Positions 2,846 to 64,000 of a DNA stretch of 64,000 nucleotides are shown here, piece by piece (position 1 is the first letter of the stretch; every line of letters starts with the position of its first letter). The notes under the pieces are model-generated. The model did not search any database, was not told the origin of the DNA, and saw only the letters and a list, made by a program, of their open reading frames with translations. A program made the position numbers and the translations under genes. The DNA is from a virus: positions 1-64,000 of the IMG/VR virus record IMGVR_UViG_3300048593_000672; one strand, given 5' to 3'.

Positions 2846-3135
2846 ACAATGCAACTTTAAGCGGTGAACTTAGCTCTGATCCTCAAAGCCGATTTGTTAA
2901 TGATGGACAAACACAAGTTGTTAATGCTGTTTTGCAATTTAACAATTTTAAGGGCCAACCTGAGCGGATGAAGATCGCGGCTTGGGGCAATCAAGCTGCC
3001 GAACTGCAAAAATACCAGCAGGGGACAATGCTGATTGTCGAAGGCCGGTACAAGTCTTTAAAAATCGAACGGGATGGTTTTAAGGAAGATGTGCTTGAGT
3101 TGAATGTTTCTAAAATTCATGAGGTGAACGTATAA
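2842..3135 (+). CDS. Second SSB-like OB-fold protein (no acidic tail)
   Basis: NNATLSGELSSDPQSRF, IAAWG, LIVEGR. Confidence 0.75.
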   Translation: MNNATLSGELSSDPQSRFVNDGQTQVVNAVLQFNNFKGQPERMKIAAWGNQAAELQKYQQGTMLIVEGRYKSLKIERDGFKEDVLELNVSKIHEVNV

Positions 3136-3452
3136 TGCCAAATGTCAAAAAAGTTGACTGGGATGAGCTAAACGATCAAGGCCGAGTTTTGGAGACACTA
3201 GCAAAGCCACCATCACCCCCACCACAGACACCAAGTAAGCTACAACGTAACGAATTACGCTTTGAGCTTTACAAAGCCGCACTGACCGGTATCTTGGCTA
3301 ATAGTCTTACTCAGGACTGCATTTCTAAAGCCATTGAGTTATCGGGTGTTCCCGCGCAGCAAGCAGAGCCACTTGTGAGACAAGCTAATGCCAGAATTGC
3401 TTTAAAACAAGCTGATGCGGCTTTGGCTGAGTGGGAGAAAAACCAAACTTAG
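3135..3452 (+). CDS. Hypothetical phage protein
   Basis: Coupled ORF; AALTGILAN...ADAALAE motif common in small phage proteins. Confidence 0.6.
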   Translation: MPNVKKVDWDELNDQGRVLETLAKPPSPPPQTPSKLQRNELRFELYKAALTGILANSLTQDCISKAIELSGVPAQQAEPLVRQANARIALKQADAALAEWEKNQT

Positions 3453-3481
3453 TTAGACGACTACCAACAGGACTAAGATCG

Positions 3482-3509
3482 AAGGGGGGAGATTACCCCC
3501 TTATTTTTT
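3482..3509 (+). terminator. Intrinsic terminator
   Basis: GGGGG-agatta-CCCCC hairpin followed by a T tract. Confidence 0.6.
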
Positions 3510-3525
3510 AATCGCTATACAAACT

Positions 3526-6459
3526 ATGAACAACCATCAAGCACTGATAGACGGGCTTACGACGCTACATAAATACGCCCCTGATGCGTGGGTTTATCCC
3601 TGTAATGCTCAAAAAATGCCAGCAGCTTATCATCGTGGGGCACCTGACAGACACATCATCCCCTCCGACTTGTCCAAGGCTCTCAAAAAGGGTGAACTAC
3701 TACTACCTTGTCCCGCCGACAATGACAAGAGCTTAAACCAGAATAAAAACGTCATCCCAGACACCACTGGATTTAAGCTGTTGACTGGCCGCAAATTCAG
3801 TTATCAGTGCCAGCAAGTCGTGTTAATCGCCATTGATGTTGATGGGGATGAGGCGAGGGAGACGCTTAATGTTTTGCGTGGCGATCGCCCACTCCCCCCT
3901 ACTGTTACCTGGTCATCGGGAAAACATGGTCGTTGCACGTACCTCCACCATTTCTCTGCTGGTGCTATTAAAGACACGCTTAAGAATAAGTCCCTGGGCA
4001 TTAAGGACGGGCGGGTAATCAAAGTCAACGGTGGGAGGTTAGAGATCATTGCTAATTGGCCTGGGGTTGTTGTTCCCCCCTCCGCCCATGCTGAAACCGA
4101 TGGTTATACATTTTGGGAGGGCCGATCATTTGCTGAAATAGCGATCGCTGAATTGCCAGATTATTTTGTGAGTTACCTGTGGGAAGAAAAGCGGATTAAG
4201 TCGCTTGATGACATTAAGTTACCCGTAGATGCAACTATCCCACTAATCGAATGCTGCTCTAAAGAAGTTCGGCAATTAGTTAATGATGGGGTGCCTGAAG
4301 GTTCAGGACACAACGATCAGTCTATTGCAGTTGCGTTAGAGTTGGTGGCGGTTCAGCGTTATTTAGACTATTTGGGTCAGTCTTACGATGCGGATGCAAC
4401 AAGTTATTTTACCCGATTCTTGGTGGCAAGCAATGTTGATGGGCGACGAGCAGAAGGACGTATTGAATGGGCTAAAAGCAAAAACGTTATTGAGCCAGCC
4501 TGTAAGCAGGAAGGTGTCAATAACTGTATTCGCGGCTGGTATTGGACTGAACATCTAAAAAACAATAATAGTTTTTCACAATTGGCACCAGCCAGCAAAA
4601 ATAAAGCGATTACACCAGAACAACAATCCAGTATTTGGGAACAGTTAAAAACACTCTATCACAGTCAAAATAGCATACAGGACATAGAGCTAGGGATAGC
4701 TAAAATCGCTTTTGAAAACAGTCGTCAACGCTCGGAAATCGAACGTCTCTATCAGTCTGTTTGTAAGACATTAGAGCAGGATCTAGCTAAGGATTTAGCC
4801 AATGAAGAGTTTAGCGAGTTTCAACTTAATACCAACCTCTTAATTGATATTGCCGATATTCTCCCCCCAGAACTAGCGGTAGAGTTAAAACGTAAAGCCA
4901 AAAATCGTTTTCATCCTTTACGTTACTTGGCTTATCTGTGGCCAGCTTGCGGAACATTGGTAGGGGCAAAAGCCCATGTAGTTGATCCTCGCGCCTCAGA
5001 TTGGCAATCCTATTTTATTTTTTATTGTATTGACATGGGGCTTAAGGGGGATGGAAAAACCACTGCCGGTAATTCAATCATGTATTACTTATTAAATAAG
5101 TTAATTGAAGCTGATCAGGAATGGGTAAGACTCCAAACCCAATTAAAGAATGTAAAACGGGCGTGGAAGCGAATGACACCACCAGAGCGTGAACACAATA
5201 CTGGTGATGCCAACCTTGATCCAGATGCTTTTGAGGATACTATTGAGGCAAAGAAAAAATGGGTTTTTAATAATCCCACAGTGCCAGCCGTATTAAAGTT
5301 TTTATCCGAACAAGATCCGTGGCATTCTGCTATTTTATTTAATGATGAACTGGCAAGTTTGATTAAGGGATTCAATCAATATAGTAAGGGAGATGGTAAT
5401 GATAAGGAGTATTGGTTGCAAGCTTTTAATGGACGTTCCTATTACGGATCTGAGCGTGTAACCGAGGGCAAAACTCATCAACTCCGAGGTCAGTTAATAC
5501 AGATTGCGGGGGGGATGCAACCTGACGTTTTCCGACAGCATTTATCTTTAGCAAAAAATCAAGATGGTTTAACAGACCGTTTTTTAATCTGCGATCCGCC
5601 AGAGATTGATGTGCCGATGAGGATGGACTTTGTGGAAACTAATCATGTTGCTATGCTTAATAAGATTTTCAAGTCTTTAGAGTCAATTCCGGTTGACAAG
5701 GATCGCTTCAGTTCTTACCCAATTTACTTTGAATCGGATGCGGCTCAGTATTGGGAAAAGTGTTGGGTAAGACTTAATCAATTAAAAGCTGAAAATCGAA
5801 TTAAAAACCCAAACTTTAGCGGTTATTGCGCCAAACTAATCACATACTTTCCCCGTCTTGCTGGTATTCTTTCCCTTATTTGGCAAGCGCATTATCGGGA
5901 TGAGGATGAACAATTTATACCAGCAAAGATACCTTTACACATAGCAGAAAAAGCATGGTCGCTTATCTGTTTTTATGCAACTCAATATATCAAAGCCGCC
6001 GCTATGTCGGATGAGTCGGCCAACCCACTTAGCAAGTTACTGAAAGACATTTGGGTTGTGGTTGAGCGTGACGGATCTATTACCCCCAGGCAAATTATTC
6101 AGTATTTTGGCAGTCGCAACGTTGGACAAAAGTTTGACTCTGCTTTTGCCAAGAGTCAGCTACAGGTGTTGGCTGACAATGGTTATGGCATCATTGAGCC
6201 AACTAAGAACAGTGGTATTCGACTCATTTATAAGGCTCCATCCGTAATCAAACAATCTGTCTTTAAGTTGCCAGAAATTCCCAAGCAATTAATTAAAGGG
6301 TGTGTTGCTAAAGTTTTATCCCCCAACTATGGGGTTGAGACAGATAGCGTTTGCTTCGTCTTTGAGCTTGACCACGACAATGACATTGCCCAGGTAATGT
6401 TGGAGGGGATAGATAATCCAGTTCCCATTCCATTTAGGCATTTGGCAAAGCAAGATTAG
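3526..6459 (+). CDS. Prim-Pol (AEP) primase fused to DUF3987/YfjI-type P-loop helicase domain
   Basis: AIDVD and VVPPSAH Prim-Pol motifs; GLKGDGKT Walker A; NDEL, GGMQP, DGLTDRFL DUF3987-like motifs. Confidence 0.8.
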   Translation: MNNHQALIDGLTTLHKYAPDAWVYPCNAQKMPAAYHRGAPDRHIIPSDLSKALKKGELLLPCPADNDKSLNQNKNVIPDTTGFKLLTGRKFSYQCQQVVLIAIDVDGDEARETLNVLRGDRPLPPTVTWSSGKHGRCTYLHHFSAGAIKDTLKNKSLGIKDGRVIKVNGGRLEIIANWPGVVVPPSAHAETDGYTFWEGRSFAEIAIAELPDYFVSYLWEEKRIKSLDDIKLPVDATIPLIECCSKEVRQLVNDGVPEGSGHNDQSIAVALELVAVQRYLDYLGQSYDADATSYFTRFLVASNVDGRRAEGRIEWAKSKNVIEPACKQEGVNNCIRGWYWTEHLKNNNSFSQLAPASKNKAITPEQQSSIWEQLKTLYHSQNSIQDIELGIAKIAFENSRQRSEIERLYQSVCKTLEQDLAKDLANEEFSEFQLNTNLLIDIADILPPELAVELKRKAKNRFHPLRYLAYLWPACGTLVGAKAHVVDPRASDWQSYFIFYCIDMGLKGDGKTTAGNSIMYYLLNKLIEADQEWVRLQTQLKNVKRAWKRMTPPEREHNTGDANLDPDAFEDTIEAKKKWVFNNPTVPAVLKFLSEQDPWHSAILFNDELASLIKGFNQYSKGDGNDKEYWLQAFNGRSYYGSERVTEGKTHQLRGQLIQIAGGMQPDVFRQHLSLAKNQDGLTDRFLICDPPEIDVPMRMDFVETNHVAMLNKIFKSLESIPVDKDRFSSYPIYFESDAAQYWEKCWVRLNQLKAENRIKNPNFSGYCAKLITYFPRLAGILSLIWQAHYRDEDEQFIPAKIPLHIAEKAWSLICFYATQYIKAAAMSDESANPLSKLLKDIWVVVERDGSITPRQIIQYFGSRNVGQKFDSAFAKSQLQVLADNGYGIIEPTKNSGIRLIYKAPSVIKQSVFKLPEIPKQLIKGCVAKVLSPNYGVETDSVCFVFELDHDNDIAQVMLEGIDNPVPIPFRHLAKQD

Positions 6460-6761: not shown

Positions 6762-6830
6762 ACAAAGTTCTACTTTTGTTTTGATAATGCTCTTGCCAAC
6801 TTTAATTTGTCTTGTTTTGTGGGGGTGGCA

Positions 6831-7829
6831 ATGATAACTTTTGCCAGTCTTTTTACTGGATATGGTGGGGCTGATCTGGGGGCTGTCCATGCAGGATTGA
6901 CCCGTGTATGGGGGATTGAAAAAGACCCTAGTATTGCTTACGTTGCCAACTTAAATCATGGTAACTATATCTTATGTTTAGACGCAAAAGATTGTAATTT
7001 TAGCTTGTTTCAACGTCCAGACTGGCTACACGCAAGCCCTCCCTGTACAACTGCCACTGTAGTTAATGACAAAAAAGAATCACAGGAAGATATTGATTTA
7101 GCTCAGGCAATTTGTCGAGCGATTGAGGTATTGCAACCTCAATATTTTAGTCTTGAAAATGTTGCGGGTTATGTCAGATATCAATCTTTTGCCAAGATCG
7201 TATCACGACTATACGATCTTAATTACGCATGGGATTATAAAGTCTTGGATTGTTCTGATTACGGAGTTCCACAAGCTCGAAAAAGATTATTCTTTGTAGC
7301 GTCAAAAAATCCCTCTGTTTTTGGATGGGTTGATCGCATTCCAAAAGTAGAGGAAAAAGCCAATTGGTATGACGCGATCGCTGATTTAATCCCTACTCTC
7401 CCAGAATGCAAGCTAAAAGAGTCTCAAAAAACAGCGTTAGTTAATAGTCATGAAGTTTTGACTAACTCCATTGAAAAGTCAGAATACTTCCGACAATTAC
7501 CAAATCTAGCTATTCAAAATAGCGGTTCTCGCAAAGATAAAGACGGGAATCCTACTAACACTATCCGACTAGCCAATGAGACTATCTGGACTATTAGGGC
7601 TATGTCTGGCAACGTCCGACCTAACCCCCATCAAGTAACTTTAATCGTTGATGGTCGGGTATTACGTCCTACGATTGAATGTTATGCCAGATGGCAATCT
7701 TTTCATAATAGCTATCAGTTTAGCGGTGATTTTAAGCTAGATATGCGCGGAGTGGGCAATGCAGTCCCACCATTAATGTTTTCTCAAATTGTAAGGAGTG
7801 TTTTAAATGATTTTTGCAAAACTTACTGA
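6831..7829 (+). CDS. DNA cytosine-C5 methyltransferase
   Basis: LFTGYGG, SPPC, ENV, GVPQARKR, GNAVPP motifs. Confidence 0.93.
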   Translation: MITFASLFTGYGGADLGAVHAGLTRVWGIEKDPSIAYVANLNHGNYILCLDAKDCNFSLFQRPDWLHASPPCTTATVVNDKKESQEDIDLAQAICRAIEVLQPQYFSLENVAGYVRYQSFAKIVSRLYDLNYAWDYKVLDCSDYGVPQARKRLFFVASKNPSVFGWVDRIPKVEEKANWYDAIADLIPTLPECKLKESQKTALVNSHEVLTNSIEKSEYFRQLPNLAIQNSGSRKDKDGNPTNTIRLANETIWTIRAMSGNVRPNPHQVTLIVDGRVLRPTIECYARWQSFHNSYQFSGDFKLDMRGVGNAVPPLMFSQIVRSVLNDFCKTY

Positions 7830-8137: not shown

Positions 8138-9091
8138 ATGAAGACTTACATTATCACTTGGCTTCGTGGCAATCAGACTCTATATCTTAGCGAGATACTT
8201 GGAAGCCAATCAAATTGGAGTCATGACATTAAAGACGCTCTCAGATTCTCCCAAAACAATATTCCCAATCTCTGTATAGATAAGTTTTATCAAGTTCATG
8301 ACTTGAGTAAGCTTCGCAAACTAATTAAATCCCCCCTACGCTACCCAGGCGGCAAGTCAAGAGCCATCAAACACATTCTCCCACTTTTTCCCAAGGGGAT
8401 TTCTAAGGTTGTTAGTCCTTTTATGGGCGGGGGAAACATTGAGATTAATCTGGCAAATCAGGGAATTGAAGTTCATGCCTACGATAAATTTAGCCCGTTA
8501 ATTTTTTGTTGGCAATTAATCAACAGCGTTCCCGTTGAGTTTGCAACTTTAATTCAAAAGCATTATCCGTTATCAGAAGCAAGCTTCTATCGAGAGCAAA
8601 AGCGTTATTGTTCGTTACTGGAAGCGGACAATTTTATGGAGGTAAGACTTGAATTAGCTTTATGGTTCTTTATCCTAAACCGTTCATCGTTTAATGGTAC
8701 AACATTGTCTGGGGGGTGTTCTAATCCGTCAAAACAGTTCACTCAGTCATCTATTGATCGGGTACGTAACTGGCAAAAATTAGACAACTTAAAAATCGGT
8801 TATGCAGATTTCAAGGATTCACTAAATGCACACAAAGATGCGTTTGTCTTTGCAGATCCTCTATACATGATTGACAGCAATCTTTATGGCAATAAAGGCG
8901 ATTTACATAAGAATTTTGACCATCAAGGATTGTTTAAATACTTAAATGATAGAAATGGTTGGATTCTCTGTTACAACGATTGTTCAACTATCAGGGAGAT
9001 GTATTCACGGTTTAAAATTGTTGAACCTGAATGGAGTTATGGTATGGGCAAAAATAAAAAGAGTCGTGAACTCTTGATTTTAAATTATTAG
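8138..9091 (+). CDS. Dam-like (D12 class) adenine methyltransferase with variant DPLY motif
   Basis: SPLRYPGGKS, PFMGGG, LNRSSFNG; DPLY in place of DPPY. Confidence 0.85.
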   Translation: MKTYIITWLRGNQTLYLSEILGSQSNWSHDIKDALRFSQNNIPNLCIDKFYQVHDLSKLRKLIKSPLRYPGGKSRAIKHILPLFPKGISKVVSPFMGGGNIEINLANQGIEVHAYDKFSPLIFCWQLINSVPVEFATLIQKHYPLSEASFYREQKRYCSLLEADNFMEVRLELALWFFILNRSSFNGTTLSGGCSNPSKQFTQSSIDRVRNWQKLDNLKIGYADFKDSLNAHKDAFVFADPLYMIDSNLYGNKGDLHKNFDHQGLFKYLNDRNGWILCYNDCSTIREMYSRFKIVEPEWSYGMGKNKKSRELLILNY

Positions 9092-16886: not shown

Positions 16887-19800
16887 CCAACTGGCGATCG
16901 CGTTCAATCTGACTCATTGACTTGCCAAGATCATTCGTGTTAGCCACTTCAATCTTAATGGTTTGATTGAAGTTGTTAACAGTTCCCTCGCTGGTATTAG
17001 TCTGAGTAGTGTTGGGGATGTAGGAAACAGGGCCGCCCTTGGCAAAATTCTTAACATCCTTGGCCATACGTTCTGACCAGTCTTTATAGTTGCGGTAGTC
17101 GCTGGCTTCGTTTGCAGAAATCACATACTCGTCAGCATTAAGGACGGCCAGGATGGGCCGCTTACCACCCGACTGCGACCTCTCCCGATTCATTGCTTGA
17201 CTAATGCCTTCTACCAGTCCCCCACCCGCATAATTATCAATCTTGAGGGGGTCAACGGGGCCGCCGTCGGCAAAGTTGAACGCATGACTAATCATTCCTG
17301 TAAAGCCGCCCGATAAGCTGTCAGCTATTGATTGACCCGCACTGGCATTACCAGCGTTAAACAGATTGCCAAAAATATCACTGCCAGCATTGATAAAGCT
17401 ACCGCCGCCGCTAACTGTTAAAGCACCAGCAAAAGCAGATAGGGCTGTAGTCGCTTCTGTCAGTCCCAAAATAAAACCGGCCATGGCGGGGTCAGTGGAA
17501 GTAATACCAGCGAGGAAAATGTTATCCATTGCTTGGCTGGTATTAGTCGTTGATTCCGTCAGGCTAGTAAATGCACTACTCAAATCAATTGTGTCGGGTA
17601 AAGCTTGACCTGTTGTTAATGTATTGCTTAAGTCAAAAGGCACAATGTTGTTGGCCGCTATGCTTGCCCCCCGCTCACCTAGTCGCGTAATTACATGGGG
17701 ATAAAATTCTTTGTTATCCAGACCGAGCATTGGCCCAACCCATTCAGCGATCGCATTTTGGAAGGGTTTGATAGCTAACTGCTCTAACATCATCCCCAAA
17801 ACAAGATCCTTGACTTTGTTGAGCGACTCCCCTAGTCCCTTAGACTCTAGGATCGCGCTACGCAGCCCCGAACTAAACTCTTTTAGACCTGGGATAGCGT
17901 CAACAAATGATCGCTTAATATTTAACTCACTAATCTCAGCCTGAAACCGCCGCATTTCACTAGCCTGTTGAGGCGAGTAAGCACCATCCCGAATCTGCTT
18001 CTCTAAATCAACTCTGGCTTGAGCCGCTTGCATCCGAGCATTAATAATCGCACTGGGGTCAATTAACGTTCCCATTCCCCAATCATTCTGCGCCCCAACG
18101 TCATAACGGGTTTTGTAGAGGTCAGCTTGAATTTTGGCATAACCCTGTTTAGATGCCATAATTTTATCGAGTCGCAACCAGGCTTCAGTGGCTCGTTTAG
18201 TGGGTTCTTCTAACGCAGCCATCGCCTTGGATTGCCTGTCAATTTCTTCCCGACGAGCTTGCATAATGGGAATGCTGTCGGTATAAAGTTTTAAATTGCT
18301 TTGATAAACAGACATAGCTTGCAACTCTTGAGTAGTTGCTTGGCGACCAGCTTTCGTCAGTTCAGCTTGCTTGTCAGCTAAGGCTTGTGCCGCAACCGCC
18401 GCACCAATATAGGCATCATCCATCTGTCTGCCAAGATTCCGCAATTCATCATCAAAATCACGGTTCATCTGGCGGAATTGTACACTAACTCCTTCTACAG
18501 CCAGGTTAATCTCATCAGCAGCCGTTTTATAGCCCTTGCTGTTAATGGCTAACTCACGATACTTGATATTGTTATCCTCAACTTTTCGACTCAAGTTAAG
18601 AGCCATATCTTGAAGGGATTGTAATTGCTGTTGGAAGGCATTGTTGAACTTGACCACCTCAAGATTGCCTTGCAGATCAAGCACAGCCCGATTGACCCCA
18701 ATTGTCGCATTCTTAACATCATTAATCTGACCAGCCGTATTAGTTAAACTACTCGTATCTTGTACAGTGATTGGATTTTGATCTGTAATTTGCTGTAAGC
18801 CGCTATAGTCATTAATTGCCCTTGGCTGGTATTTTGTAATAAATGGACTTTGTACGTTTGGCAGGACATTTCCCCCATTCATATCAACTTGAGGCTCAAG
18901 TTGAGAAGGTTGATAGCCTGGGAGTGTTTGATATTTTTTAATGTTGGGGTTGACATTGGCATTGCTACTACCAATCCCCTTGGCCGCATCAACTCTTGCC
19001 TGACTTTCCTTAAATTGTTTGGCAATTGCCTCAGTGCGTTTTTTCCAATCCTTCGACGACATCCTATCAATAAACTTAATGCCTTTTGACTCATAAAACT
19101 CATCAAGTTTAAAGGCTTCAGGATAAAGTTCTTTTTGATATTTGATAATATCTTCTAATGGCTTGCGGCTAATATTATTTGGATCGTTCAACTCAGCTTG
19201 ACGTTTTCTTGCCTTCTCCTGTTCGATCCGTTTGGCCCGCGCAGCAGTAGTGGCATTAGTCTGGAAAATTGCAGATCCCATATCACTAATACCCTCACTG
19301 GCATCAGCGACTAGCCACTCTTTGGGGGCCGCCGATCTCATTTGATTGTATAAGATACCCCTTACTCTAGATAAAGACTTCAAGTATTTAGATCCGTAGG
19401 CTGGATCTGTAGCATAGCGACCATAGCGACCCTTAAAGTCACGGTTGATAAAATCTTCAGGAGTGCTAAAGAAAAAGTCTTTTTTAAGTTTAATTGCTGC
19501 GTACTCTAAGCCCTGTCCGTAGGTTTTAAAGTGCTTGTTATTGCCAGCATCATCGTTGCCATAGTTCAGTGGGTTTTTAGTAAACTTCCCTCGTCCCTTG
19601 GTTCCAAAATGGCTTTCAATAAATGCTTGAGTTACTAAGGCATCAATGCTAACTCCTGACTTGGTAGCAGCATTTTTAAAATCCTCAACTGTCATTTGAG
19701 AACCATACTGGTTCAGCAATCTTGCTAAGTTTTTCTCCCATCCCATCGATTGAGTAGTAGCAGCCTGCGCCGGAGCGGTCAAGATGTTTTGCGCTGGTAC

Positions 19801-34847: not shown

Positions 34848-35066
34848 TCACAGGTATCTTAATGCAGTTGCTTCTGTATCTGTGATTGCCCGATTAAACA
34901 TAGAAAAAGACGAGACAACTCCATTAAAAAACCATGTATTATTGTAGCTACCCAGTCTATAAACATGATTAAAGTTTAAAGGCGTAACGTATGACCCAAA
35001 CGCACCATACCCTCTCTGGTAAATATTAAAGCTGGAATTTCCAGTTGAGCAGCAAATTGTTGTCAT
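34848..35066 (-). pseudogene. C-terminal fragment of a LamG/concanavalin-like receptor-binding domain
   Basis: FNGVVSSFSMFNRAIT..E..AL is a LamG C-terminus; only 72 aa. Confidence 0.5.
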
Positions 35067-35068
35067 TT

Positions 35069-38342: not shown

Positions 38343-38350
38343 TTTAACCC

Positions 38351-38584
38351 CTACGAATAACGCCCTAAAATTTGAACTGTAACCTTGTTTGCTGTGTCTG
38401 TTACTGCCTGAATAGTATCGTTAACTGCTGACAGTGTCAAGGAATAGGGGAGATCAAAAATAAAGGTTTCTTTAGTGGCAATTTCTCTTTCAAAAAATAT
38501 GTTAGTTGTATCTGATGCTGTGCCAACACTCCCCCCTGAATTAGGGACATTATAAAGCTTTACCGTTTCTGCTGTTGTAATTGT
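38351..38584 (-). pseudogene. 5'-truncated tail structural gene remnant
   Basis: Open frame TITTAETVKLYNVP...DTIQAVTDTANKVTVQILGRYS* with no ATG, directly after a TAA. Confidence 0.6.
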
Positions 38585-38600
38585 TTATTATCAAAGATAA

Positions 38601-40184
38601 TCACAAAATCCTCATCCCCTGCCATTGCGTCCCGCCAACACTTAAGATAATATTCCCAGTAGTATTGTCAATAATCCTAGCGGCGGCTACCTCAGATGCT
38701 ACCCCACAAAATCCAAATTTCACAAATCCTCGGAAATAAAGAGTTGTACTGCCCCCATAAGCTGTGCTTGAATTTCTTCCCTCTAAATAAGAATAGGGAT
38801 CAATAATAGCTTGGCCGTCATAATTTCTCCCGCCATTATAGGCTAAGTAAGCGGCATTTGTCGCTCCGACCTCATTTAGCCTCGCATTCGCAGATGTTAC
38901 GGTTACTCCTATTCGCTTTGTGAAATCAAAAGTTGAAAGCAATAATGGTTGAATCACCGTGTTTACAGCCGTCCCTGCTGGATCTGTCTGTGAGTGGAAA
39001 TCGACGCTAAGTTGCTTCCAATTGGTATTAGCGTGTTTGGCCTTTGCCACATAAGCGTATAAATATCCTGAAGCATAAAGTCTTCCAAGCATCCATGCCC
39101 ATTGATCTGTTAAGTCAATTCTGTTAAGAAAGCCGAAATGATAACCAAAACAAGCTCCTGACGCATTGTAAATACAAATACAGCCAGCGTCACTATCGGC
39201 ACTTAACCAAAGCCGATTAATGCTTCCCTCAGTAAAGGTTAAAGTATGAGTCGCAGTTGGGGAACCATTTATTTTAGTTTCTTCTAACCACCCCCTAAGC
39301 GTTAGCGTCATACTAGGCGCGGAACCACTAACAACAAATTCAACCCAGCAGTTATGGTTATTTGATGTAACTCCTTTAGTAAATAAAGAAGTACCAGATA
39401 CTTTGCTGATGGTTGTCCACCCCGCACTAGCTAAATTCGTATCTAGTGTATTTATTAAATTAATAGCGGTTGTGAATTGATAGCCCGTGTAATCACCTGG
39501 AGTTGTGCTGTTTAAATAAACTACTGGCATTAAAAACCTCTACTGTTTGGTGTGGCAGAATAAGGGGCAGGACTGACAAAATAAGCGATTGGTAAGTTGA
39601 TAAAAGGTGTGTCTGATTGAATAATCTTAAAAACAGAAATATTGCCAGATGAATCACTTGAAGGTGTGGCGCTCACACTCCCATCCCTTTTAGCAGCTTG
39701 ATTGATTGTAATTTTAGGCAGTCCAGTCTCAATGACTGGGGGAGCCGTATATCTTTTTCCCTCTTGACAAATTTTTATCAAAGGTAAATTAGACCCCGAT
39801 GGTGTAGCAACGGGGATAAATCTTTTGCCTTTAAAATAACGAGTTTTAAGCATTTTAAACCGTACTTTCTATGCCTGACAAAATCAATGTTACGTCTGTA
39901 GTTGTAGTTGACTTAGCCTCAAATTGATCCCCCGCCAAATACCGTTCCCCAAACTCAGTTAGTATTCCACTCCCATCGGCAGAACTGCCTATTTTTTCCC
40001 CATTAAAAATATAGTGAGGATCGGTAACACCTGTCCGAGTAACCTTGACTGTTATCGTCCCTGCTGTCGTACCATTTGACGCTCGAATCTTTTCCATTAA
40101 AAAATTATAGCCAGTCGTTACAGTGTGAACAGTCTGGAAAGATGTTGTTAGCTTGATGATTTCAGAGATTGCAGTTTCAGCCAT
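38601..40184 (-). CDS. Tail-associated genes (38601-39530, 39530-39853, 39855-40184)
   Basis: Coupled ORFs directly after the host-specificity protein. Confidence 0.6.
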
Positions 40185-40188
40185 GATA

Positions 40189-42783
40189 TTAAAGCCAGTA
40201 TTGTAATTTTAAATAGTTTGTCGCATCGGGCGGTGAGGTTATCACAAAATCCGTTAAACTTTCACCACTACTGGCGGCGGTGACAGTAACCTTTCCCGTC
40301 TTGGTTGTGGCTGCGATAGTCCCTGTTGCCAAAGCGTCAGAAACAACAGAAAAAGCATTAATCCCCACACTATTGATGGCAGCACTAGTCGCACCCGTAA
40401 AGCCCACACCAAAGATAGAAATTGCATCGCCAATCGCTCCTTGAGTTGGACTAAAACCCGTAATAACTGGAGTAACAGTTGAGAGCGTTGGGGCGATCTG
40501 CACCGCTAACGGATAGCCACGCCCAACTATTGCGCTCAACTGATAGATTTTAACACTTAAATTAGTTTGGACAGAACCAAAATCTGTTACCTGGTCAGCC
40601 GCACTATAGCTTATCCCTCGGCTGGTGCTTGTCAATGTCCTTGCGACACTCAACCCGTCCATTACGTCAATCTCGTATCGCTCCGAAACCTCACTCATTA
40701 AACTTGAGGGGCTTGACCAGCCATCGTGACGATCGCGGCGATCCCATGCAATTGCAATATTCCCACCCTGGTCTTTGGTCGCACTTGCACTGACAGGGGA
40801 ATAGCATTCTAGAGAAATACCAGCAGAGGAAATTGCTGTGTAGCTTGCCACCGATGGCTCACTCCCATTAACCCCAACCGCTTTCAGTCGCAATGACAAG
40901 CCTATATCGGACTGGGCTAGTTTAATTTTGCCCAAATAGCCACTCAACAAAACAAACTGCTCATTTGTGCCATGTCCACTAATAGCCCAGTCAGTCCCCC
41001 GACAACCCCGCTTAAACTCACTCAGATCATAGACTCCGGTAGAGATGAGGGCTGCATCCCTGGCCATAATAATTTCATTGCCCAAGCTAAATAAAATCCC
41101 ATTATTCAAGTCAAATTGGGCTTGAGTCACAGAAGATAGTTGTCCTGTACAATCACTGACCCTAATTGTCGTTGCATTACTGGCCGTGGCTGTGGCGACA
41201 ATCCCGACAATGCTCTTACTGCTAACACTGGCAATACTTTGATAGCTTGCACCAGAATCCCGACTAACATAAATGTTTCCACCCCGCCAATTGGTATCAC
41301 CCACAACAGCAATATATCCCGTCCCATCTGGGTCGCTATCAGTAATAAGGGAGATGTCAAGGGGGATAAGTGTAGCAGTGCCAATAGGTGTAGTGGTTGT
41401 TTGAGGATAATCAATATCAGCGTCAATATCTGGATCTGGATAAACCGGCTGAACAATAATCGGCGTGTCGGGATCGCCTGGGTCGTATGTGACACTTCCA
41501 TTAGCACCAGCGCAAAAAAGCTCAATGAGGTAGTTAGTCCCAACCGTCTTTTTTTCTATCCGCCATAAACGATTAACATTTCCCTCGTTAATTGATATGC
41601 AATCTCCAACATTAAGCCCGTTATAACAGGGCATTAAATAAAGCTTTTCAAGCTTATGCTTGTATGCTTTAGACTGATACAGCAATCGGCTTGCCACTCG
41701 TCCCATATCCCCGTCATAGCCGACAATTGAAGTAGTAAAAGTATCTTCTTTTGTATGCGTTGCAGCCGGATCTTTATAGAATTGAAATCCCTTATCATGA
41801 TCCTTACCAGCATTGGTAAATGTAACCCCAACAAATGAGGGCATATCTAGGGGATCGGGTTCAGGTCTTTCATAGGGAGTAATTGTTGGTGTTTTATAAT
41901 CCCTTGCCCCTAGCGCATCAAGATCTATAGATTTTGTTAAAGAAGCATTGCTAATACGATCAAAATAAAGCTTGTCATCAGACTCCCAATAATAGAGAAA
42001 GTTGATTCGACAAATATCTTCTATAAAATCTTTAAAACTACTCCCGCTATTTTCATAGACATCACCAGCGACATTAATAGATCCACAATCCCCTATAAAA
42101 ACAACATCCTCTTGAGTAATTCCGTCCTTGGCTGCAACGTGCCAAATCAAGTCCTGTAGATCGGGATCTTGACCAAATCTAAATTTTGCCTCTACGTCTA
42201 TTTTGGGAAAACCAGACCCCTTATAAAGTTCAATCGGGTACTCATTAAAAGCTAATAAACTACATCCTCGAAAGGCTGGAACGTAGCCCTCTAGAGATGT
42301 TAGAAGATCTAGTGGGCTTTGATCTGCCCTTCCTAATCTCAATTCGGTATGATCATTAAATTGCTGAATTACATCCCCAGAATCCCAAGCTGTATAAATC
42401 TGGACTCCATTAGCCCAGACACGATTAAGTCCCTCATCAGAAATCTCACCACCAATCAAAAATACAGCAGTCAAATAGTAATTTGCTGTGTCAGCATTGG
42501 TAACTGTCGTATTTCCACCACCCCCTTTTCCGCCCGATGACTGAGTAGTGGTCGTAGTTGTGATGACTTCCTTTAATGACTTTGCATAGATCAACGAACA
42601 GCCATTAACTCGATTTAATCCATATAAATCACGAATTAAATAGCCAAATTCACTATTCGGTGCGCCTAAGTTGTCTAATCTTTGGGCTGGTGTGTTGACA
42701 TAATTTGTAGTGTGGGGCGCAAATAAACGGCCCAATAATCCGATACCAGCACTAGCAACAGCAGGAATAATTAAATTAGCCAT
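40189..42783 (-). CDS. GTA-like host specificity/central tail tip protein with C-terminal IPT/TIG domain
   Basis: GGKGGG, PAFRG, RG.RGTD, SEVSERYEIDV, PVITGFSP. Confidence 0.85.
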   Translation of the reverse strand: MANLIIPAVASAGIGLLGRLFAPHTTNYVNTPAQRLDNLGAPNSEFGYLIRDLYGLNRVNGCSLIYAKSLKEVITTTTTTQSSGGKGGGGNTTVTNADTANYYLTAVFLIGGEISDEGLNRVWANGVQIYTAWDSGDVIQQFNDHTELRLGRADQSPLDLLTSLEGYVPAFRGCSLLAFNEYPIELYKGSGFPKIDVEAKFRFGQDPDLQDLIWHVAAKDGITQEDVVFIGDCGSINVAGDVYENSGSSFKDFIEDICRINFLYYWESDDKLYFDRISNASLTKSIDLDALGARDYKTPTITPYERPEPDPLDMPSFVGVTFTNAGKDHDKGFQFYKDPAATHTKEDTFTTSIVGYDGDMGRVASRLLYQSKAYKHKLEKLYLMPCYNGLNVGDCISINEGNVNRLWRIEKKTVGTNYLIELFCAGANGSVTYDPGDPDTPIIVQPVYPDPDIDADIDYPQTTTTPIGTATLIPLDISLITDSDPDGTGYIAVVGDTNWRGGNIYVSRDSGASYQSIASVSSKSIVGIVATATASNATTIRVSDCTGQLSSVTQAQFDLNNGILFSLGNEIIMARDAALISTGVYDLSEFKRGCRGTDWAISGHGTNEQFVLLSGYLGKIKLAQSDIGLSLRLKAVGVNGSEPSVASYTAISSAGISLECYSPVSASATKDQGGNIAIAWDRRDRHDGWSSPSSLMSEVSERYEIDVMDGLSVARTLTSTSRGISYSAADQVTDFGSVQTNLSVKIYQLSAIVGRGYPLAVQIAPTLSTVTPVITGFSPTQGAIGDAISIFGVGFTGATSAAINSVGINAFSVVSDALATGTIAATTKTGKVTVTAASSGESLTDFVITSPPDATNYLKLQYWL

Positions 42784-44114: not shown

Positions 44115-44534
44115 ATGCTAGCCCCAATAATTATTAAAAGTCCCAAAAAAACTTACGCTACTAAATCAGAACATGATGAACAGGCTGAGTTCGTAGCTTG
44201 GTTTAAAAAGCTTTATCCCAACGTAGGTATTTTTGCTATTCCCAACGGTGCTAATTTGTCGGGGGATAAAAGTGGCAATCAACAAAAAGATGCTGCTGCT
44301 AGGGCTAAACAATGGCGGTATCTTGTAGCGGAGGGAGCCAGTAAAGGTCATCCTGATCTACAAATACCAGCGTGGAAAATTGTGATTGAATTTAAAAAAG
44401 CCAAGGGTGGTGTAGTCAGTCCCGAACAAGAGGATTGGCTAAGATATTACCGTTCAATTGGATGGAATGCTGTTGTTTGTTATGGCGCATCTCAAGCTAA
44501 AGATTTTATTAATGGTTTTGTTAGGAGGATGTGA
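44115..44534 (+). CDS. VRR-NUC nuclease (Holliday junction resolvase-like)
   Basis: EHDEQ, FAIPNG, GHPDL, IEFK..GG.VSPEQ..W. Confidence 0.9.
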   Translation: MLAPIIIKSPKKTYATKSEHDEQAEFVAWFKKLYPNVGIFAIPNGANLSGDKSGNQQKDAAARAKQWRYLVAEGASKGHPDLQIPAWKIVIEFKKAKGGVVSPEQEDWLRYYRSIGWNAVVCYGASQAKDFINGFVRRM

Positions 44535-51739: not shown

Positions 51740-52318
51740 TTAACCCTTACTTGGTTGAACAGTGTGATCGCCGTTGTAACGTCCAGTTTTTTGATAGGAG
51801 ACAATACAGCTTTCGTGAGAATGAAAAATTAATTGACCAATTCTCATCCCTGACGATAACGGAATAGAGCGGTAGCGAGAATAATTTTTAAGCTCAAGGG
51901 TTAATGCTGAGTTACTAAAACCAGCAAAAGCCCATACCGCTAACGAATGCCCAAGCCCTTGACGAGCCAAGGATGACTTAAGCGCAAACTCACAGGAGAT
52001 ATTATTAGGTAGATTAAACCGCTCTTTTGTACAAGCTAAAACAAGTTCATTGGGGGCAAGATAATATTTTTTAGCCAAGTTAATAGCTAAAAAATCTGTT
52101 GATTCACCATTTAAAACAGCCCAAAAATTATCCGCTAACAATCCCCGCACTTGTAACCACCATGCTTTTAGTGGTTGAATCCATTTGGGAGCTTCAACCA
52201 TAATTTTATCCCCCATCAAAACATCAAGACTTGCAGGATTAATCAGGCCGGGATTAAAAGGCTCAATTGCCCCAGTCCGTTCAATCAGTTCTTTGATCTG
52301 CCAATCAACTAAAATCAC
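51740..52318 (-). CDS. dcd: dCTP deaminase
   Basis: INPASLDV, KSSLAR.G, LTLEL.N, GMRIGQL, GRY.G; DPG replaced by FAG. Confidence 0.88.
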   Translation of the reverse strand: MILVDWQIKELIERTGAIEPFNPGLINPASLDVLMGDKIMVEAPKWIQPLKAWWLQVRGLLADNFWAVLNGESTDFLAINLAKKYYLAPNELVLACTKERFNLPNNISCEFALKSSLARQGLGHSLAVWAFAGFSNSALTLELKNYSRYRSIPLSSGMRIGQLIFHSHESCIVSYQKTGRYNGDHTVQPSKG

Positions 52319-56342: not shown

Positions 56343-57923
56343 TTAAATATACCTATTTTGTCTTGACTGTTGAGGGAGATAACCAACAAAGCTTGTATCT
56401 GAACTGATTATAATTGCATTTTGGGCGTTTGTGACCTGTTCATAAGCCCCAGTTGCCGAATCCACGATGTCATTGACGGTGGCCTTGAATAAACCGTCAA
56501 AACTTTCGACAGCCGATAAAAACTGGCTATTCCAATCCCCCCGAATCAAAAATACATGGCCCTGTTGTGCCTGAGTAGCTAAAGGGAGTGCTCGTTGCAG
56601 CTTGCTTTTGTCGGGTTTGATGGCCCTAATATCAAACTCCCTATTGATCGCTTGTAGTTCCTCCGCAAAATCACTCTCTAAAATTTTAGAACTGGCCCCA
56701 CCCTCTAACTCATAGCGGATTTTGGTATTTATCCCATCGGCGATCGCCGTTCCCTTGATGGCCTCAAAAACTTCCCCCGCCTTTCGTTGAAATACCAGCA
56801 GGTCGAGAATGTAAATGTTTGTGCCGATCATTGCCATCAAACAACCCGCAGTTGAACAGGTCTTTTTCCCCGCATCCTCCCGACTGGTAGCAGCCAAATC
56901 CCAAAATCGAATTTTAATAAGCGGCTCACAGGGTAAATCAGCATAGTCAATGACTTTAAACCATTCACCACTAAAGACAAGACCAGCTTCATACCTGATT
57001 TTCCAGTTCCCGAATAGCAATCGTTGACGTTCAACTTCATGTAAAGCGTTTAAGTTGGCCAAGTATTCAGGGTTTTTGCGGAGAAGGGCGGGGTTGTCAT
57101 AGATACTGGCGGCAATGAAAGTAAACGACTTAATCATGTCATCGTAGGTCACAAGTCCATTACTTCCCTCTACGATCGCCCGTAATTTCTCTTTATGTTC
57201 TTCTATTAATTCCTGTTTAGTATCTCCCCAGTAAGTTATCTCGTTAAATCGCAAAAAATACCTAATAACACCAGATCGTTCCATAATGGGATAGCCAGTT
57301 TCAGGATGCCACCACCACTGAATAAATGACGCAACCCAACTATCAGCGTCGGGGTTCATTGTTGCCCTTACTTTTGGCTTAATCCCACAGCCAGAACGGT
57401 TCCGAGACAACATATAGAAAAATTGATTTTCGTGAAAATGGCACAATTCATCAAACCCAATCCAACAAAATTGCGCTCCCTGATAATCATAAACAGAATC
57501 CTCATGCTGTAAAGGTCTAAATGTTATTTCCGATCCCGTTGACCATCGCCAAGTTGGTGGTTTACTGGTAAATCGCCCCCCAATCTCCCGATAAAGTAAT
57601 TGACTTTCGGAGATTAAACCACCAGAGTTTGTTAACTGAGGATACGATCGCCTAAAAAATACAGCGTTATAGCCCGATGTCTGTATTGACTTTTGTTTTG
57701 CAGCATCAATTAACAAGAATGCTGATTTCCCTGAACCTGCGCTTCCCCCCGTAAAAAGCACATCAACCGGACAATTAAACATCTCAGTTTGTTTGCCTGG
57801 TTGTGGCGGTGGAAGTGGCCATTCAACTTTTGTGGTCGCTGAAACTTTAGCCCTAGTTGACTCTAGACAATGCCTTCGCAATTTAGGGCTAAGTAGTTGG
57901 GATGGTGAAACGCTATTTGCCAC
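56343..57923 (-). CDS. terL: Terminase large subunit
   Basis: GGSAGSGKS, FDEL, ATMNP, RFWDLAA, DIVDS. Confidence 0.93.
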   Translation of the reverse strand: MANSVSPSQLLSPKLRRHCLESTRAKVSATTKVEWPLPPPQPGKQTEMFNCPVDVLFTGGSAGSGKSAFLLIDAAKQKSIQTSGYNAVFFRRSYPQLTNSGGLISESQLLYREIGGRFTSKPPTWRWSTGSEITFRPLQHEDSVYDYQGAQFCWIGFDELCHFHENQFFYMLSRNRSGCGIKPKVRATMNPDADSWVASFIQWWWHPETGYPIMERSGVIRYFLRFNEITYWGDTKQELIEEHKEKLRAIVEGSNGLVTYDDMIKSFTFIAASIYDNPALLRKNPEYLANLNALHEVERQRLLFGNWKIRYEAGLVFSGEWFKVIDYADLPCEPLIKIRFWDLAATSREDAGKKTCSTAGCLMAMIGTNIYILDLLVFQRKAGEVFEAIKGTAIADGINTKIRYELEGGASSKILESDFAEELQAINREFDIRAIKPDKSKLQRALPLATQAQQGHVFLIRGDWNSQFLSAVESFDGLFKATVNDIVDSATGAYEQVTNAQNAIIISSDTSFVGYLPQQSRQNRYI

Positions 57924-58299: not shown

Positions 58300-59430
58300 T
58301 TGACGTTTTAGTTGTCAAGCAACTTCAGTAGTCAACTGATTTTGGCATAGCAGCTTACCATTTGTCACCTTGCTAAAAAGTTGGAAGTCCAAAATCGCTC
58401 ACAGCAGGGCTTGTGGGATTTTAGAGTCAAAAAAGTTGGAGCGGTTTTTGAACTTGTGACACGACCATTGATTTTTCCCGTTTCAAACGGAACAACTCAA
58501 AACCCTTGCTGTGACTGATTCTTTAAGGGGGTTGGGGTCATCGAGAAAACGGCGTTTAGTCGCTGAAAGCATTACATGGCAAGACGTTGAGGGACATCGA
58601 GATAATCTACGACTCAAACTAATATCTTTTGCAGACTAATCAAGCTCAGTTTAGATACGACTAACAGCTAAACGTCTCAATATAGCTAAACGGGATTTAA
58701 CACAGCTAAAACGCGATTCTATCCCCATCCCAGAAAGGATCGAGGGACAAGCACCAGCGAGAGGAAATTGGGGAGGGGGATCTGATGTACGAAAAAACTG
58801 ATGTACGCACTAATGGAGGATAGGAGTATATTAATATAGTAGTATATATATGTTATTATTATTATTATTATTATTATTTATTATTATTATTATTTATTAT
58901 TACTACTCTTTTTCTCCCATTTTCCCTGTACTCCTGTTAGTATTGTTAGCCCCTCTGTTAGCTATCTCTATCCCTTACTCCATATACATTACAGTCACTT
59001 TTCTCTACTGTTAGCATCCTCTCTACTTTTTTTATTCTTTTTCTCTAGTATTATATTATGTACTTTATAGAACATCTGCTTTTTTATTTTTTACTCTTAG
59101 TGGGGGGATGCTAACACTTACAGTTACACCAAAAATGAAAGCATTGCGGGGTAAGCACTTCAAGCTTTGTAATACAAATTACAGTGCTAACAGAGGCTAA
59201 CAAAGTTTTCTAGTAAATTTGCTCAAAACAATACATTTTACTGTTTTAATGTTTAACAATATAACGGCGCAGTGGGAGAATTGACAAAAAACACGTAATT
59301 AACGTGTTGTACTGTAAGTTTAGTTTGCGCGTATTACAATGTTAATGATTTTGTCAATATTTGTTAGTCAACAAAATAGCGACATAGATCGTTAAAATCT
59401 AGTCGCTATAATTCTTTCTGCTGGTATTTG
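58300..59430. repeat. Repeat-rich non-coding region; putative replication origin or packaging region
   Basis: (TTA)n at 58852-58900, opposed TGTTAG/GCTAACA repeats, AGCTAAA x3, CTGATGTACG x2. Confidence 0.55.
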
Positions 59431-59433
59431 TTA

Positions 59434-61615: not shown

Positions 61616-61774
61616 AATGCTGCCCTCTCTGTATCGAGTTGTTAATGTTTGTATAAATCTAATCTCCCACAATCCCACAACTTTGTCAAGCCTTTTCAGC
61701 AAAAAAGTTTAAATTACTTTTAGCTATTGCTTACAAGCCTTACCCCGCAAGCAATAGCTAAAAAACACGACTAT

Positions 61775-62323
61775 CTAAGCAGCTAAAAAGCTCTCGGACA
61801 AGCGTTCTAACACTTCCCTTTTGCTGGTATTAGTGTGCTTACTTAAAAGTTCCGCGCCATAGGCTACAGCCAGCTTGCGGGCATTGTCTATCGCCTCTTG
61901 ATAGACTGTATCTATGTCCTCAAAAATACTGGTAACAACGCCCTTATTGTACATATCTTGTAAGTTTAGATTAAACAAAAACTCGTTTAGATCTTTACTT
62001 TCCTTAGCTACGTTGATCACAATTTCTAACCGCTTTTGCAATAGCTCTAAGCCTTTAGGGGTCAATTGTTGATGCAATTTATCGCCTTTCAATTGACGAC
62101 TTTTTAACGTTTTATAAACACCATCTGGAAAGTGATCATAGATAACTTCTTTTGTGATTTGCGCCCAAGAGTGGGGTCGTAGATGTCCGTTCTGCTTTAA
62201 TCCTGTAAGGCGTTCAAGTTGGCTATAATACTCATCTTCAAAGCGTTTTAGCCAGTGATTAACTGGCATAACATAGTCATCAATATTGACATTAGGGCAT
62301 TTATCCTTTACAGTGGTAGTCAT
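61775..62323 (-). CDS. P63C-domain protein
   Basis: RF.DEYY..L.RL.G....RP....IT..VIY....KLHQ.LT; promoter TTGACT-17-TATACT at 62425-62397. Confidence 0.7.
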   Translation of the reverse strand: MTTTVKDKCPNVNIDDYVMPVNHWLKRFEDEYYSQLERLTGLKQNGHLRPHSWAQITKEVIYDHFPDGVYKTLKSRQLKGDKLHQQLTPKGLELLQKRLEIVINVAKESKDLNEFLFNLNLQDMYNKGVVTSIFEDIDTVYQEAIDNARKLAVAYGAELLSKHTNTSKREVLERLSESFLAA

Positions 62324-62435
62324 GTTGACCTCTTATGGTTAATGTTTGTATTTTTTGGGCTTGTACGCCCTTTTTTTGTGCTTTCAACACTTTATTAGTA
62401 TAGCAAGATCACAAGGATAAGTCAAGCTAGAACGC

Positions 62436-63971
62436 TTACGGCGCAAGCCTTTCAGCCCCCACCCCCAACATAGTCTCAATCCTACTAATCGCAATATCAG
62501 CATAGGACGGCGAAAGCTCTATGCCATACCCCACCCGACCAGTACTAGCAGCCGCAACAATAGTAGATCCACTGCCTGCAAAGCAATCAACAATTAGATC
62601 GCCTTCGTCGCTGAATGCTTTTATGAACCACTCTGGGAGCTTATGGGGAAAGGCTGCTTGATGGCCATTGTTTTTATTAACTATGTGAATATCTAAGACA
62701 TTACTAGGCAGGGCAACACCACTAACAAGATCGCTATTATCTAGCACCGGCATATTCCAGTGAGTGCCATTGCCACTATCTTCTCTTTTGCTGGTATTAG
62801 TCCCATCAAAGCAATAATCAGACTCATGCCCTACTCGCTCAGGGTAGAAGCGTTCAATTGCCCTATCTGACTTGGTAAAATGAAACACAGGTTCAAAGCC
62901 ATTTTTAAAACGATTTGGCCAACTCCCAGGCGCGGCATTGCGTACCCAGCAAAACTCATCTACAAAACACCAGCCCCATTGTTCAACGTGGGCTATTGTT
63001 AGCTTTTTAACGTATAAATGTCTTTGCCCTTGTTCACAATGCTCTTTAATGTTTAAAAAGTAACTGCCGCTATTGGCTAACCACAGCTTAATATTATGCT
63101 GAACACTTTTAAACCAACCAACATAGTTATCTGGCTCTATTGGCACAAAACCACTATTCTCATCATATTTGCGCTGGCTGGCATAGGGCGGGCTAGTAAA
63201 GATAATGTCTGCTTTTTTATCGCCTAACAATTTGGCCCACACAGCAAGATCTAAGCAGTCACCAACAATAATCCTATGATCGCCTATCGCCCAAATATCG
63301 CCTGGCTTGCTCCTATTCTCTACTATCTTATCATCGTCTAAGCTATTGTTATCAGTCAGATCGTTGTCTGTAACAGCGTTTAAATCGTCGTTAAAACTTG
63401 TTTGTTGATTAGCATTGTAGATATTATCTAAGCTATCAAAACAAGCTAAGTTAGTGACATTATTTTCTAACAGATAACTAGACTGAGCAGCTAACAAAGA
63501 CTGATCAAACAACTCAAAAACAGCTTGATCGCCTAACGCTGCAACGGTTGTGGCATTGTGGTCTATACTATATGCTATTGCGGCGGCTTGACTGTCTGAC
63601 TTAGCGATAGTAGCTGGCACCAACCAATCAATAATCTTGTCACCCTTAAGTAGCGGTTCAACGTCTTTTGGTGGGTCGGTCTTATTTTTTTTGTAGAGGC
63701 TTTTGAGGACGTTAAGACTACGATCATGCCCCTCCACCAGCGTTAATTTAATACTTTTATCGGCTAAAATATCATCTACACTTAAGTCTTTATACTTATC
63801 ATCTAGAAAGACTAGATCGACTTGGATCGGGTCACGGAAGCCATGATAGTCGATACTGGCTAAAGTGTGACTAGTAGAGTGCTTTTTGGAGTTATTAACT
63901 AAGCCTTCTAGACGGGAAAGGGGGATAAGGCGGTATTCAAGCATAATTGGTAAGACGACAACTAAAATCAA
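62436..63971 (-). CDS. ParB-like N-terminal domain fused to beta-class DNA methyltransferase (N4-C/N6-A)
   Basis: GFRDPI...EGH.R; TSPPY, HQAAFP, DCFAGSG. Confidence 0.88.
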   Translation of the reverse strand: MILVVVLPIMLEYRLIPLSRLEGLVNNSKKHSTSHTLASIDYHGFRDPIQVDLVFLDDKYKDLSVDDILADKSIKLTLVEGHDRSLNVLKSLYKKNKTDPPKDVEPLLKGDKIIDWLVPATIAKSDSQAAAIAYSIDHNATTVAALGDQAVFELFDQSLLAAQSSYLLENNVTNLACFDSLDNIYNANQQTSFNDDLNAVTDNDLTDNNSLDDDKIVENRSKPGDIWAIGDHRIIVGDCLDLAVWAKLLGDKKADIIFTSPPYASQRKYDENSGFVPIEPDNYVGWFKSVQHNIKLWLANSGSYFLNIKEHCEQGQRHLYVKKLTIAHVEQWGWCFVDEFCWVRNAAPGSWPNRFKNGFEPVFHFTKSDRAIERFYPERVGHESDYCFDGTNTSKREDSGNGTHWNMPVLDNSDLVSGVALPSNVLDIHIVNKNNGHQAAFPHKLPEWFIKAFSDEGDLIVDCFAGSGSTIVAAASTGRVGYGIELSPSYADIAISRIETMLGVGAERLAP

Positions 63972-64000
63972 TTATGCCATAAAATGACAAAAATACCAGC

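Follow-up and report, generated by a model that had tools for sequence, protein, structure and literature searches.

What does a short, asymmetric word do in a phage genome that carries it at dozens of places, within genes and between them, on both strands? The question is raised by IMG/VR record IMGVR_UViG_3300048593_000672 (74,687 bp, 41.8% GC; here G000), whose first 64 kb form the window, a stretch of 64,000 nucleotides in which the 8-mer ATACCAGC and its relatives around an ACCAGC core recur throughout, and by a 977-aa Prim-Pol/MCM-like protein encoded in the same window that may read them. The sequence data used throughout are assembled contigs. Since a relative is colinear with G000 across the ends of the record, the map is circular or permuted. 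HIP1 (GCGATCGC) is a palindromic word that occurs genome-wide in cyanobacterial hosts, is linked to GATC/CGATCG methyltransferases and is possibly repair-driven; G000 contains 39 palindromic HIP1 sites, equal to 78 both-strand matches, compared to 2.3 expected. Judged by this abundance, by a gene content that looks like that of a temperate siphovirus, including gene transfer agent-like tail genes, and by the occurrence of its DNA in lake-water metagenomes of many studies, G000 is an uncultured freshwater cyanophage.

A word enriched at the DNA level

The window contains 45 exact copies of ATACCAGC, 26 on the + strand and 19 on the − strand, compared to 1.6 expected from dinucleotide shuffles (maximum 5), and the whole 74.7-kb genome contains 54. 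The copy numbers and positions that the original prediction had read by eye were thus recovered, together with the strong excess it had claimed over an expectation of about 2. The hexamer ACCAGC alone was found 112 times in the window against 25 expected. The motif occurs in six of six reading frames, its commonest reading being Ala-Gly-Ile/Ala/Val encoded opposite to it; of the 54 copies of ATACCAGC in the genome, 8 are intergenic. When synonymous codons were shuffled within genes, a mean of 14.1 copies remained (sd 2.3, maximum 21) against the 54 observed, and 8 of these ~14 were the fixed intergenic copies themselves. The use of all six frames, the intergenic copies and the excess that survives codon shuffling together demonstrate that the motif acts at the DNA level, far beyond chance, as had been proposed for a non-palindromic word that is no coding artefact. 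Sequences one mismatch away from the motif were neither depleted nor enriched.

Alignment of the sites gave the consensus A-N-W-A-[A/G]-[T/C]-ACCAGC with a run of 7-8 purines and an A/T behind it, a refined form of the extended consensus suggested earlier. A is preferred at positions −4 and −1 relative to the ATACCAGC core, a purine directly follows the core in 47 of 54 sites and T never does, and each of the first seven positions of the run that follows is 83-89% purine. Three main cores were distinguished by their prefixes, AATACCAGC (AAT, 50 copies), AGCACCAGC (AGC, 25) and AACACCAGC (AAC, 17), with no other common prefix and with the same flanks around all three. The ARYACCAGC family has 95 sites in the genome, 49 on the + and 46 on the − strand; read on the strand that would serve as template, the site is 5'-(T/A)(T/A)-YYYYYY-GCTGGT-RY-T-3'. 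Fourteen of the 95 sites are intergenic in a genome that is 7% non-coding, a roughly two-fold excess (p=0.007). The other 81 (85%) lie within genes, 37 in sense and 44 in antisense orientation, so that orientation is unrelated to transcription.

Phage specificity, conservation and turnover of the sites

If the word were a signature of the host, it should be as common in host DNA. The comparison was made with 5 named cyanobacterial genomes and 401 genomes drawn evenly from the phylum. The highest count of AATACCAGC among the 401 was 206 in 6.3 Mb (33 per Mb, or one per 31 kb), compared to 50 in the 74.7 kb of G000 (669 per Mb, or one per 1.5 kb). Equal abundance, the outcome that would have made the motif a host signature, was therefore not seen in any of these genomes, and on their counts that explanation is rejected. 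The closest matches to the tRNA-Cys gene that adjoins the phage integrase were in G321 (99%) and G169 (which also matches 24 nt of flank), both motif-poor.

The motif is shared by two relatives of unequal distance. The nearer, G001 (IMG/VR 3300047554_001102), is a 46-kb fragment with ~82% nucleotide identity to G000 and contains 64 motif sites; 46 of the 52 G000 sites that lie in aligned DNA have a site at the same position in G001, with the three core variants interchanging between the two. Of 54 aligned sites, 48 have an unchanged ACCAGC, compared to 44% of flanking 6-mers, and core positions are 94-100% identical compared to ~86% in the flanks. Both sites of the convergent pair inside the tape-measure gene, AATACCAGC and GCTGGTATT separated by 24 nt, are kept in G001, as are the 63992/64017 and 64104 sites of the intergenic cluster that extends past the window end; the fourth core of that cluster, at 64077, is GCCACCAGC, outside the ARY family. 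We regard this cluster as a candidate for the primary initiation region. The more distant relative, G406 (IMG/VR 3300035670_000130; 79.6 kb, terminal repeats present, 46% GC), has 33 of 101 proteins in common with G000, among them a Prim-Pol that is 46% identical, and contains 41 ARYACCAGC sites compared to 0 for the reversed control, with a G-rich purine run after the core. Only 3 of 39 mapped positions are common to G000 and G406, demonstrating that density rather than position is kept. G406 shows no HIP1 excess and differs in GC, and its host is therefore probably different from that of G000.

Outside this group the motif disappears. It was absent from eighty loci whose TerL is 37-51% identical, and G407, G410 and G411 (TerL 46-48% identical), examined as whole genomes, contained neither the motif nor a comparable word, though the motif-free relatives include HIP1-rich phages. 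Of the 977-aa protein, G410 and G411 have a counterpart to the helicase half alone and G407 to no part, so that all three lack the Prim-Pol N-terminal half. Among the matches listed in a search of IMG/VR with convergent pairs (119 loci), only G001 and a close relative, the L313 contig, were motif-dense. The motif is thus present in a single clade of G000, G001, G406 and L313. Genes limited to this clade include the Prim-Pol N-terminal half, one of two single-stranded DNA-binding proteins (SSBs; 47% identical in G406), the early genes at 315-791 and 940-1575, a VRR-NUC nuclease and a dCTP-deaminase-like gene.

The original prediction had described the motif as a replication-polarised signal that switches strand near 59 kb, with nearly all copies on the + strand from 40 to 58.8 kb. 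In that interval 11 of 13 copies of the 8-mer are on the + strand, but only 25 of 37 copies of ACCAGC are. No significant switch near 59 kb was found for ATACCAGC (runs test p=0.21, cumulative-skew range p=0.23) or for the 95-site family (permutation, p=0.18), and YACCAGC and ACCAGC likewise gave nothing. Polarity relative to a hypothetical origin at the 64-kb cluster was not significant either (p=0.15), site orientations are again mixed past 64 kb, and GC skew tracks gene direction with no turn at 59 kb. The + run at 40-58 kb is largely explained by the cheap placement of Ala-Gly-Ile in genes of the − strand. Permutation tests in G001 and G406 also revealed no significant polarity; the related phages therefore bear out the enrichment and fail to bear out the skew.

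Within single strands, sites were more evenly spaced than random on the + strand of G406 (coefficient of variation, CV, 0.48, P<0.0002) and in G001, where the two strands gave CV 0.64 (P=0.006) and CV 0.69 (P=0.02). With the strands combined, spacing was not more even in G000 or G001 and only weakly so in G406 (CV 0.74, P=0.033), where strand alternation exceeded chance (P=0.007). Since most sites are common to both, the results for G000 and G001 are not independent. The sites are interrupted by a 6.6-kb motif-free island with a lower GC (39%). G406 lacks homologues of its genes at 35069-40184, and the island was probably acquired recently as a module.

A candidate reader and the competing explanations

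The early module of G000 encodes two SSBs, Sipho_Gp157, the 977-aa Prim-Pol/DUF3987 protein and a SNF2-type helicase, and no DNA polymerase was found among roughly 50 larger open reading frames scanned. The AlphaFold2 model of the 977-aa protein (pLDDT 73) has a primase domain of the archaeo-eukaryotic (AEP) type, a helical bundle, an MCM-like helicase and a winged-helix-like end; residues 215-470 resemble PriCT/NrS-1-HBD clusters at the level of a lead, and no solved structure in the PDB was matched by sequence. The pRN1 ORF904 primase depends on a cryptic GTG in the template, directly 5' of which it begins a primer of 8 nt (PMC2034472), while the NrS-1 Prim-Pol requires an 8-nt template recognition sequence (PMC7102993). 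Like these two systems, the G000 protein, known from its sequence and model, places an AEP Prim-Pol before a helical bundle and a helicase, and the fixed element of its putative site lies 3' on the template, so that the adjoining 5' region would be copied. The G000 purine run of ~8 nt compares with the 8-nt primer of pRN1, though the pRN1 word has only 3 nt, and unlike NrS-1, which has two site copies per genome that are thought to be its origin, G000 has ~95 on both strands, ~1.5 kb apart per strand.

The reading that fits these data best, which we advance tentatively, is that the motif is a phage-lineage-specific signal in single-stranded DNA, likeliest the site at which the phage Prim-Pol/MCM-like replicase recognises its template and starts synthesis. 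We infer both that the 977-aa enzyme is the reader of the motif and that primers begin at it. The helical PriCT/HBD-like domain would bind the fixed GCTGGTRYT, which would stay uncopied, and synthesis would begin opposite the first base 5' of it to yield a purine-rich primer of ~8 nt; extension by a host polymerase is proposed because no phage DNA polymerase was found. A 9-nt word would be met by chance about once per 130 kb per strand, so that a genome primed in this way would have to carry sites at Okazaki-fragment spacing, and the observed spacing is ~1.5 kb per strand. Several observations support priming by the Prim-Pol. The core with its adjoining 7-8-nt run mirrors the primer layout of pRN1, and G000 encodes the Prim-Pol/helical bundle/MCM-like fusion together with SSBs and no polymerase that could be found. 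The motif is bound to the phage lineage and without host origin, and TerL-related genomes that lack the Prim-Pol N-terminal half lack it too. The core is conserved, its variants interconvert and density outlasts position, and evenness is mainly a property of each strand, with alternation of strands in G406. Of the three roles that had originally been suggested, priming by the Prim-Pol therefore fits the anatomy of the sites and the comparative data best.

Other points weigh against this reading, whose support comes from contig assemblies. If the lagging strand were primed from a single origin, the sites should be polarised, yet no polarity was significant. HIP1 is kept at 15 of 19 aligned sites in G001, about as well as the motif, and conservation alone is therefore no proof of a site-specific function. 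The purine-run positions changed between G000 and G001 at the background rate (28 R>R and 20 R>Y in 360), so purines are not preferentially kept, and per-strand evenness in G000 is weak even when the island is left out of account (CV 0.75, P=0.024; CV 0.83, not significant). The link between the motif and the Prim-Pol N-terminal half is confounded with the other clade genes, because one clade is compared with three outgroup genomes, and a 3.8-kb contig with an N-terminal half 35% identical contains no motif site. On the structural side, the N-terminal 350 residues gave weak Foldseek matches to NrS-1 N300 and the pRN1 primase (E 0.005-0.03), and a model of the N-terminal domain alone, built from a 3-sequence alignment, reached pLDDT 34 and was left unused.

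A stronger version, which we consider rather unlikely but worth stating, is that the replicase has a long template code of 9 nt or more: lagging-strand and restart synthesis by the Prim-Pol/MCM-like enzyme would begin at ARYACCAGC-purine sites and nowhere else. Such sites would form a private "replication alphabet" that confines priming to phage DNA, marks imported DNA such as the motif-free island as unprimed and co-evolves with the enzyme, the genome having evolved about one site per 1.5 kb per strand. If true, a genome would be visibly shaped by a long primase recognition code, and the site density, per-strand evenness, turnover of positions and motif-free imports would all follow from that code. 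We know of no earlier case of this kind; our literature searches found no description of the motif together with cyanophages and nothing relevant on primase recognition sites in phage genomes. A sequence-specific primase could also serve as a tool, replication modules would become predictable from k-mer statistics, and lagging-strand priming by Prim-Pol/helicase fusions could be tested directly.

A less probable explanation is that another phage protein binds the sites on double-stranded DNA, whether a protein of the nucleoid, of packaging or of DNA coating, a repressor with dispersed stoperator-like sites, or the replicase itself, whose C-terminal winged-helix part would bind the sites as iterons at many origins. 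Clade-specific candidates exist in the 940-1575 gene, the repressor-like 315-791 gene and VRR-NUC, and the two-fold intergenic excess and the convergent pairs in intergenic regions would suit such a binder. A distant Prim-Pol homologue adjoins a local array of 20 CATCGACA iterons, which makes sequence-specific binding of double-stranded DNA by the Prim-Pol family plausible. The stoperators of cluster A mycobacteriophages such as L5 are likewise tens of copies of an asymmetric site (~13 bp) scattered over a temperate siphovirus genome, but they are intergenic and oriented with transcription, unlike the G000 sites, most of which lie inside genes in both orientations. Evenness that is mainly per strand, with a weak combined signal in G406 only, also argues against a double-stranded target, and an asymmetric core with a purine run is more readily understood as a start site than as a binding box. 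A packaging or DNA-coating site, the third role originally suggested, belongs here and keeps a small share of the probability. Polar elements of the KOPS/AIMS type have a strong strand skew that switches at origin and terminus; the motif has near-equal numbers on the two strands and no significant switch. Nicks of the T5 type interrupt one strand of virion DNA at consensus sites; the G000 sites occupy both strands, with pairs 25-33 nt apart, so that nicking at every site would break the duplex.

Still less probable is that the word is a by-product of biased mutation or repair in the phage lineage, as proposed for HIP1, with no site-specific function. HIP1 itself is equally over-represented in G000 and similarly conserved, three DNA methyltransferases are encoded there, and the purine run shows no extra constraint. 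The two words are alike in being short, hyper-abundant, coding in several frames and conserved between relatives; the motif differs in being asymmetric, confined to phages and rare in hosts, and it is lacking in related phages that are rich in HIP1. None of the methyltransferases is clade-specific (G406 and the motif-free relatives match only the N-terminal part of the 62436-63971 product), the one-mismatch neighbours show no sign of such a drive, and the adjoining degenerate purine run and per-strand evenness would be left unexplained. Should repair or a binding protein prove responsible after all, the motif would still give HIP1 a clean counterpart that is confined to phages and stands beside it in one genome, which could help to separate selection from mutational drive for iterated words. 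We disfavour most, as improbable, the suggestion that the motif works in the manner of Chi, as a signal by which a nuclease of the RecBCD/AddAB type is controlled and the linear DNA of the phage protected. E. coli Chi is GCTGGTGG; the complement of the motif, GCTGGT-RY-T, shares GCTGGT with it, both are non-palindromic, over-represented 8-9-mers, and two orientations could serve the two ends of a linear genome. Unlike Chi, the motif reaches no comparable density in any sampled host-type genome, shows no strand polarity and belongs to one phage lineage; with its purine run, the recognised length is ~17-25 nt. RecC (PF04257) was detected in only 43 of the 401 cyanobacterial genomes, mostly of 1.6-2.9 Mb (AddAB was not searched), and in none of the tested genomes of Nostoc and Anabaena; AATACCAGC density was about equal in the compared genomes with and without RecC. 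The motif is moreover kept in G406, with its probably different host, and absent from related HIP1-bearing phages.

Feature coordinates and other observations

Table 1. Motif sites, candidate reader and other features of G000 (genome numbering; residues where indicated).
Feature	Position	Strand	Remarks
ARYACCAGC sites in the window, n=42 (9-mer starts)	1614, 3011, 9226, 10118, 10465, 11818, 12668, 15082, 15385, 17422, 17503, 20008, 21406, 23389, 23602, 24328, 25709, 26890, 29506, 30530, 31287, 32578, 34010, 40816, 41503, 43457, 44363, 45077, 45736, 46937, 47549, 48526, 50409, 52658, 54070, 55264, 55386, 56791, 57973, 58750, 62966, 63992	+	purine run +9 to +16 after each
ARYACCAGC sites in the window, n=36 (starts of GCTGGTRYT on +)	1434, 1814, 3958, 4535, 5860, 9421, 11514, 11724, 12330, 13562, 14618, 16990, 17536, 18825, 19793, 20440, 21012, 21112, 23897, 24283, 26150, 27052, 27098, 30237, 32458, 33395, 40621, 43932, 47329, 50729, 55807, 59420, 59796, 61371, 61823, 62790	−	pyrimidine run in the 8 nt before each start on +
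Convergent pair	17503-17544		inside tape-measure gene
Intergenic cluster, two convergent pairs	63992+/64017− and 64077+/64104−		to genome 64112, past window end
Motif-free island	34019-40620		gap-length probability 0.014
977-aa candidate motif reader	3526-6459	+	Pfam Prim-Pol E=7.7e-13, DUF3987 E=1.8e-28
Prim-Pol (AEP primase) domain	residues about 1-218		part of 977-aa protein
Helical PriCT/HBD-like bundle	residues about 240-345		C243, H262, C326, C334 invariant
MCM-like AAA+ helicase (DUF3987)	residues 443-829		MCM structural match Z 15.9
Winged-helix-like part	C-terminal end		part of 977-aa protein
SSB	1947-2315	+	homologue in G406, none in G407/G410/G411
Sipho_Gp157	2318-2845	+	
Second SSB-like protein	2842-3135	+	
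Repressor-like early gene	315-791		clade-specific
Early gene of unknown role	940-1575		clade-specific
VRR-NUC nuclease	44115-44534		homologue in G406, none in G407/G410/G411; region outside G001 fragment
dCTP-deaminase-like gene	51740-52318		homologue in G406, none in G407/G410/G411; region outside G001 fragment
TerL	56343-57923		
Tape-measure protein, 4300 aa	16861-29763	−	
Integrase	73446-74492		past window end; adjoins tRNA-Cys
tRNA-Cys gene	74564-74635 (L126:10564-10635)	−	past window end

In comparisons with isolate phages, no nucleotide match to G000 and no tblastn match to its Prim-Pol were found in the collection, and TerL matched distant phages only. Of the public sequencing runs compared, three of four were identical to the window and the fourth was a variant; no RNA dataset was among the public runs listed as containing G000 DNA. 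The methyltransferases of G000 include a C5 and a Dam-like enzyme (6807-7829 and 8138-9091), and examples of HIP1 in the window are at 3881, 4141, 7374 and 11788. The tape-measure protein has a kinase-like match (residues about 1520-1605) and a glucosaminidase match (3360-3463).

Phages with related TerL were considered as further cases of the same architecture and rejected, their top 8-mers being tandem repeats of a heptamer in L139, words of compositional or coding origin in L168 and Thr-Ser coding runs in L252 and L323. Contigs with distant Prim-Pol homologues (L129, L130) were set aside as well, as they contain local tandem or iteron arrays and not dispersed motifs. In L130 (JAESGT010000208.1), 18 of the 20 copies of CATCGACA lie at 3958-4465, directly after the homologue gene, in both orientations and partly as 78-bp tandem units, an origin-like iteron array. 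G411 (IMGVR_UViG_3300045999_010308) has unrelated 9-mers, GTAGATTGC, GTCAAGCCG, ACAATCGGC and GTTAAGTAG, in 15-21 copies each, which are probably parts of one longer dispersed or arrayed repeat.

A promoter- or operator-like family, tAGCTTGACAACt-N5-6-tTAGTTGtg, carries an inverted repeat as well as a −35-like TTGACA and is mostly intergenic. Its members are at 884, 6463, 9481, 31183, 33073, 43776, 49561, 53620(−), 55345 and 58312(−) in the window and at 70287(−), 70921 and 73061 elsewhere in the genome. The last of those in the window falls in a non-coding region of 1.1 kb (58300-59433), which contains a (TTA)n microsatellite at about 58853-58905, GCTAACA/TGTTAG repeats and a single motif site (58750).

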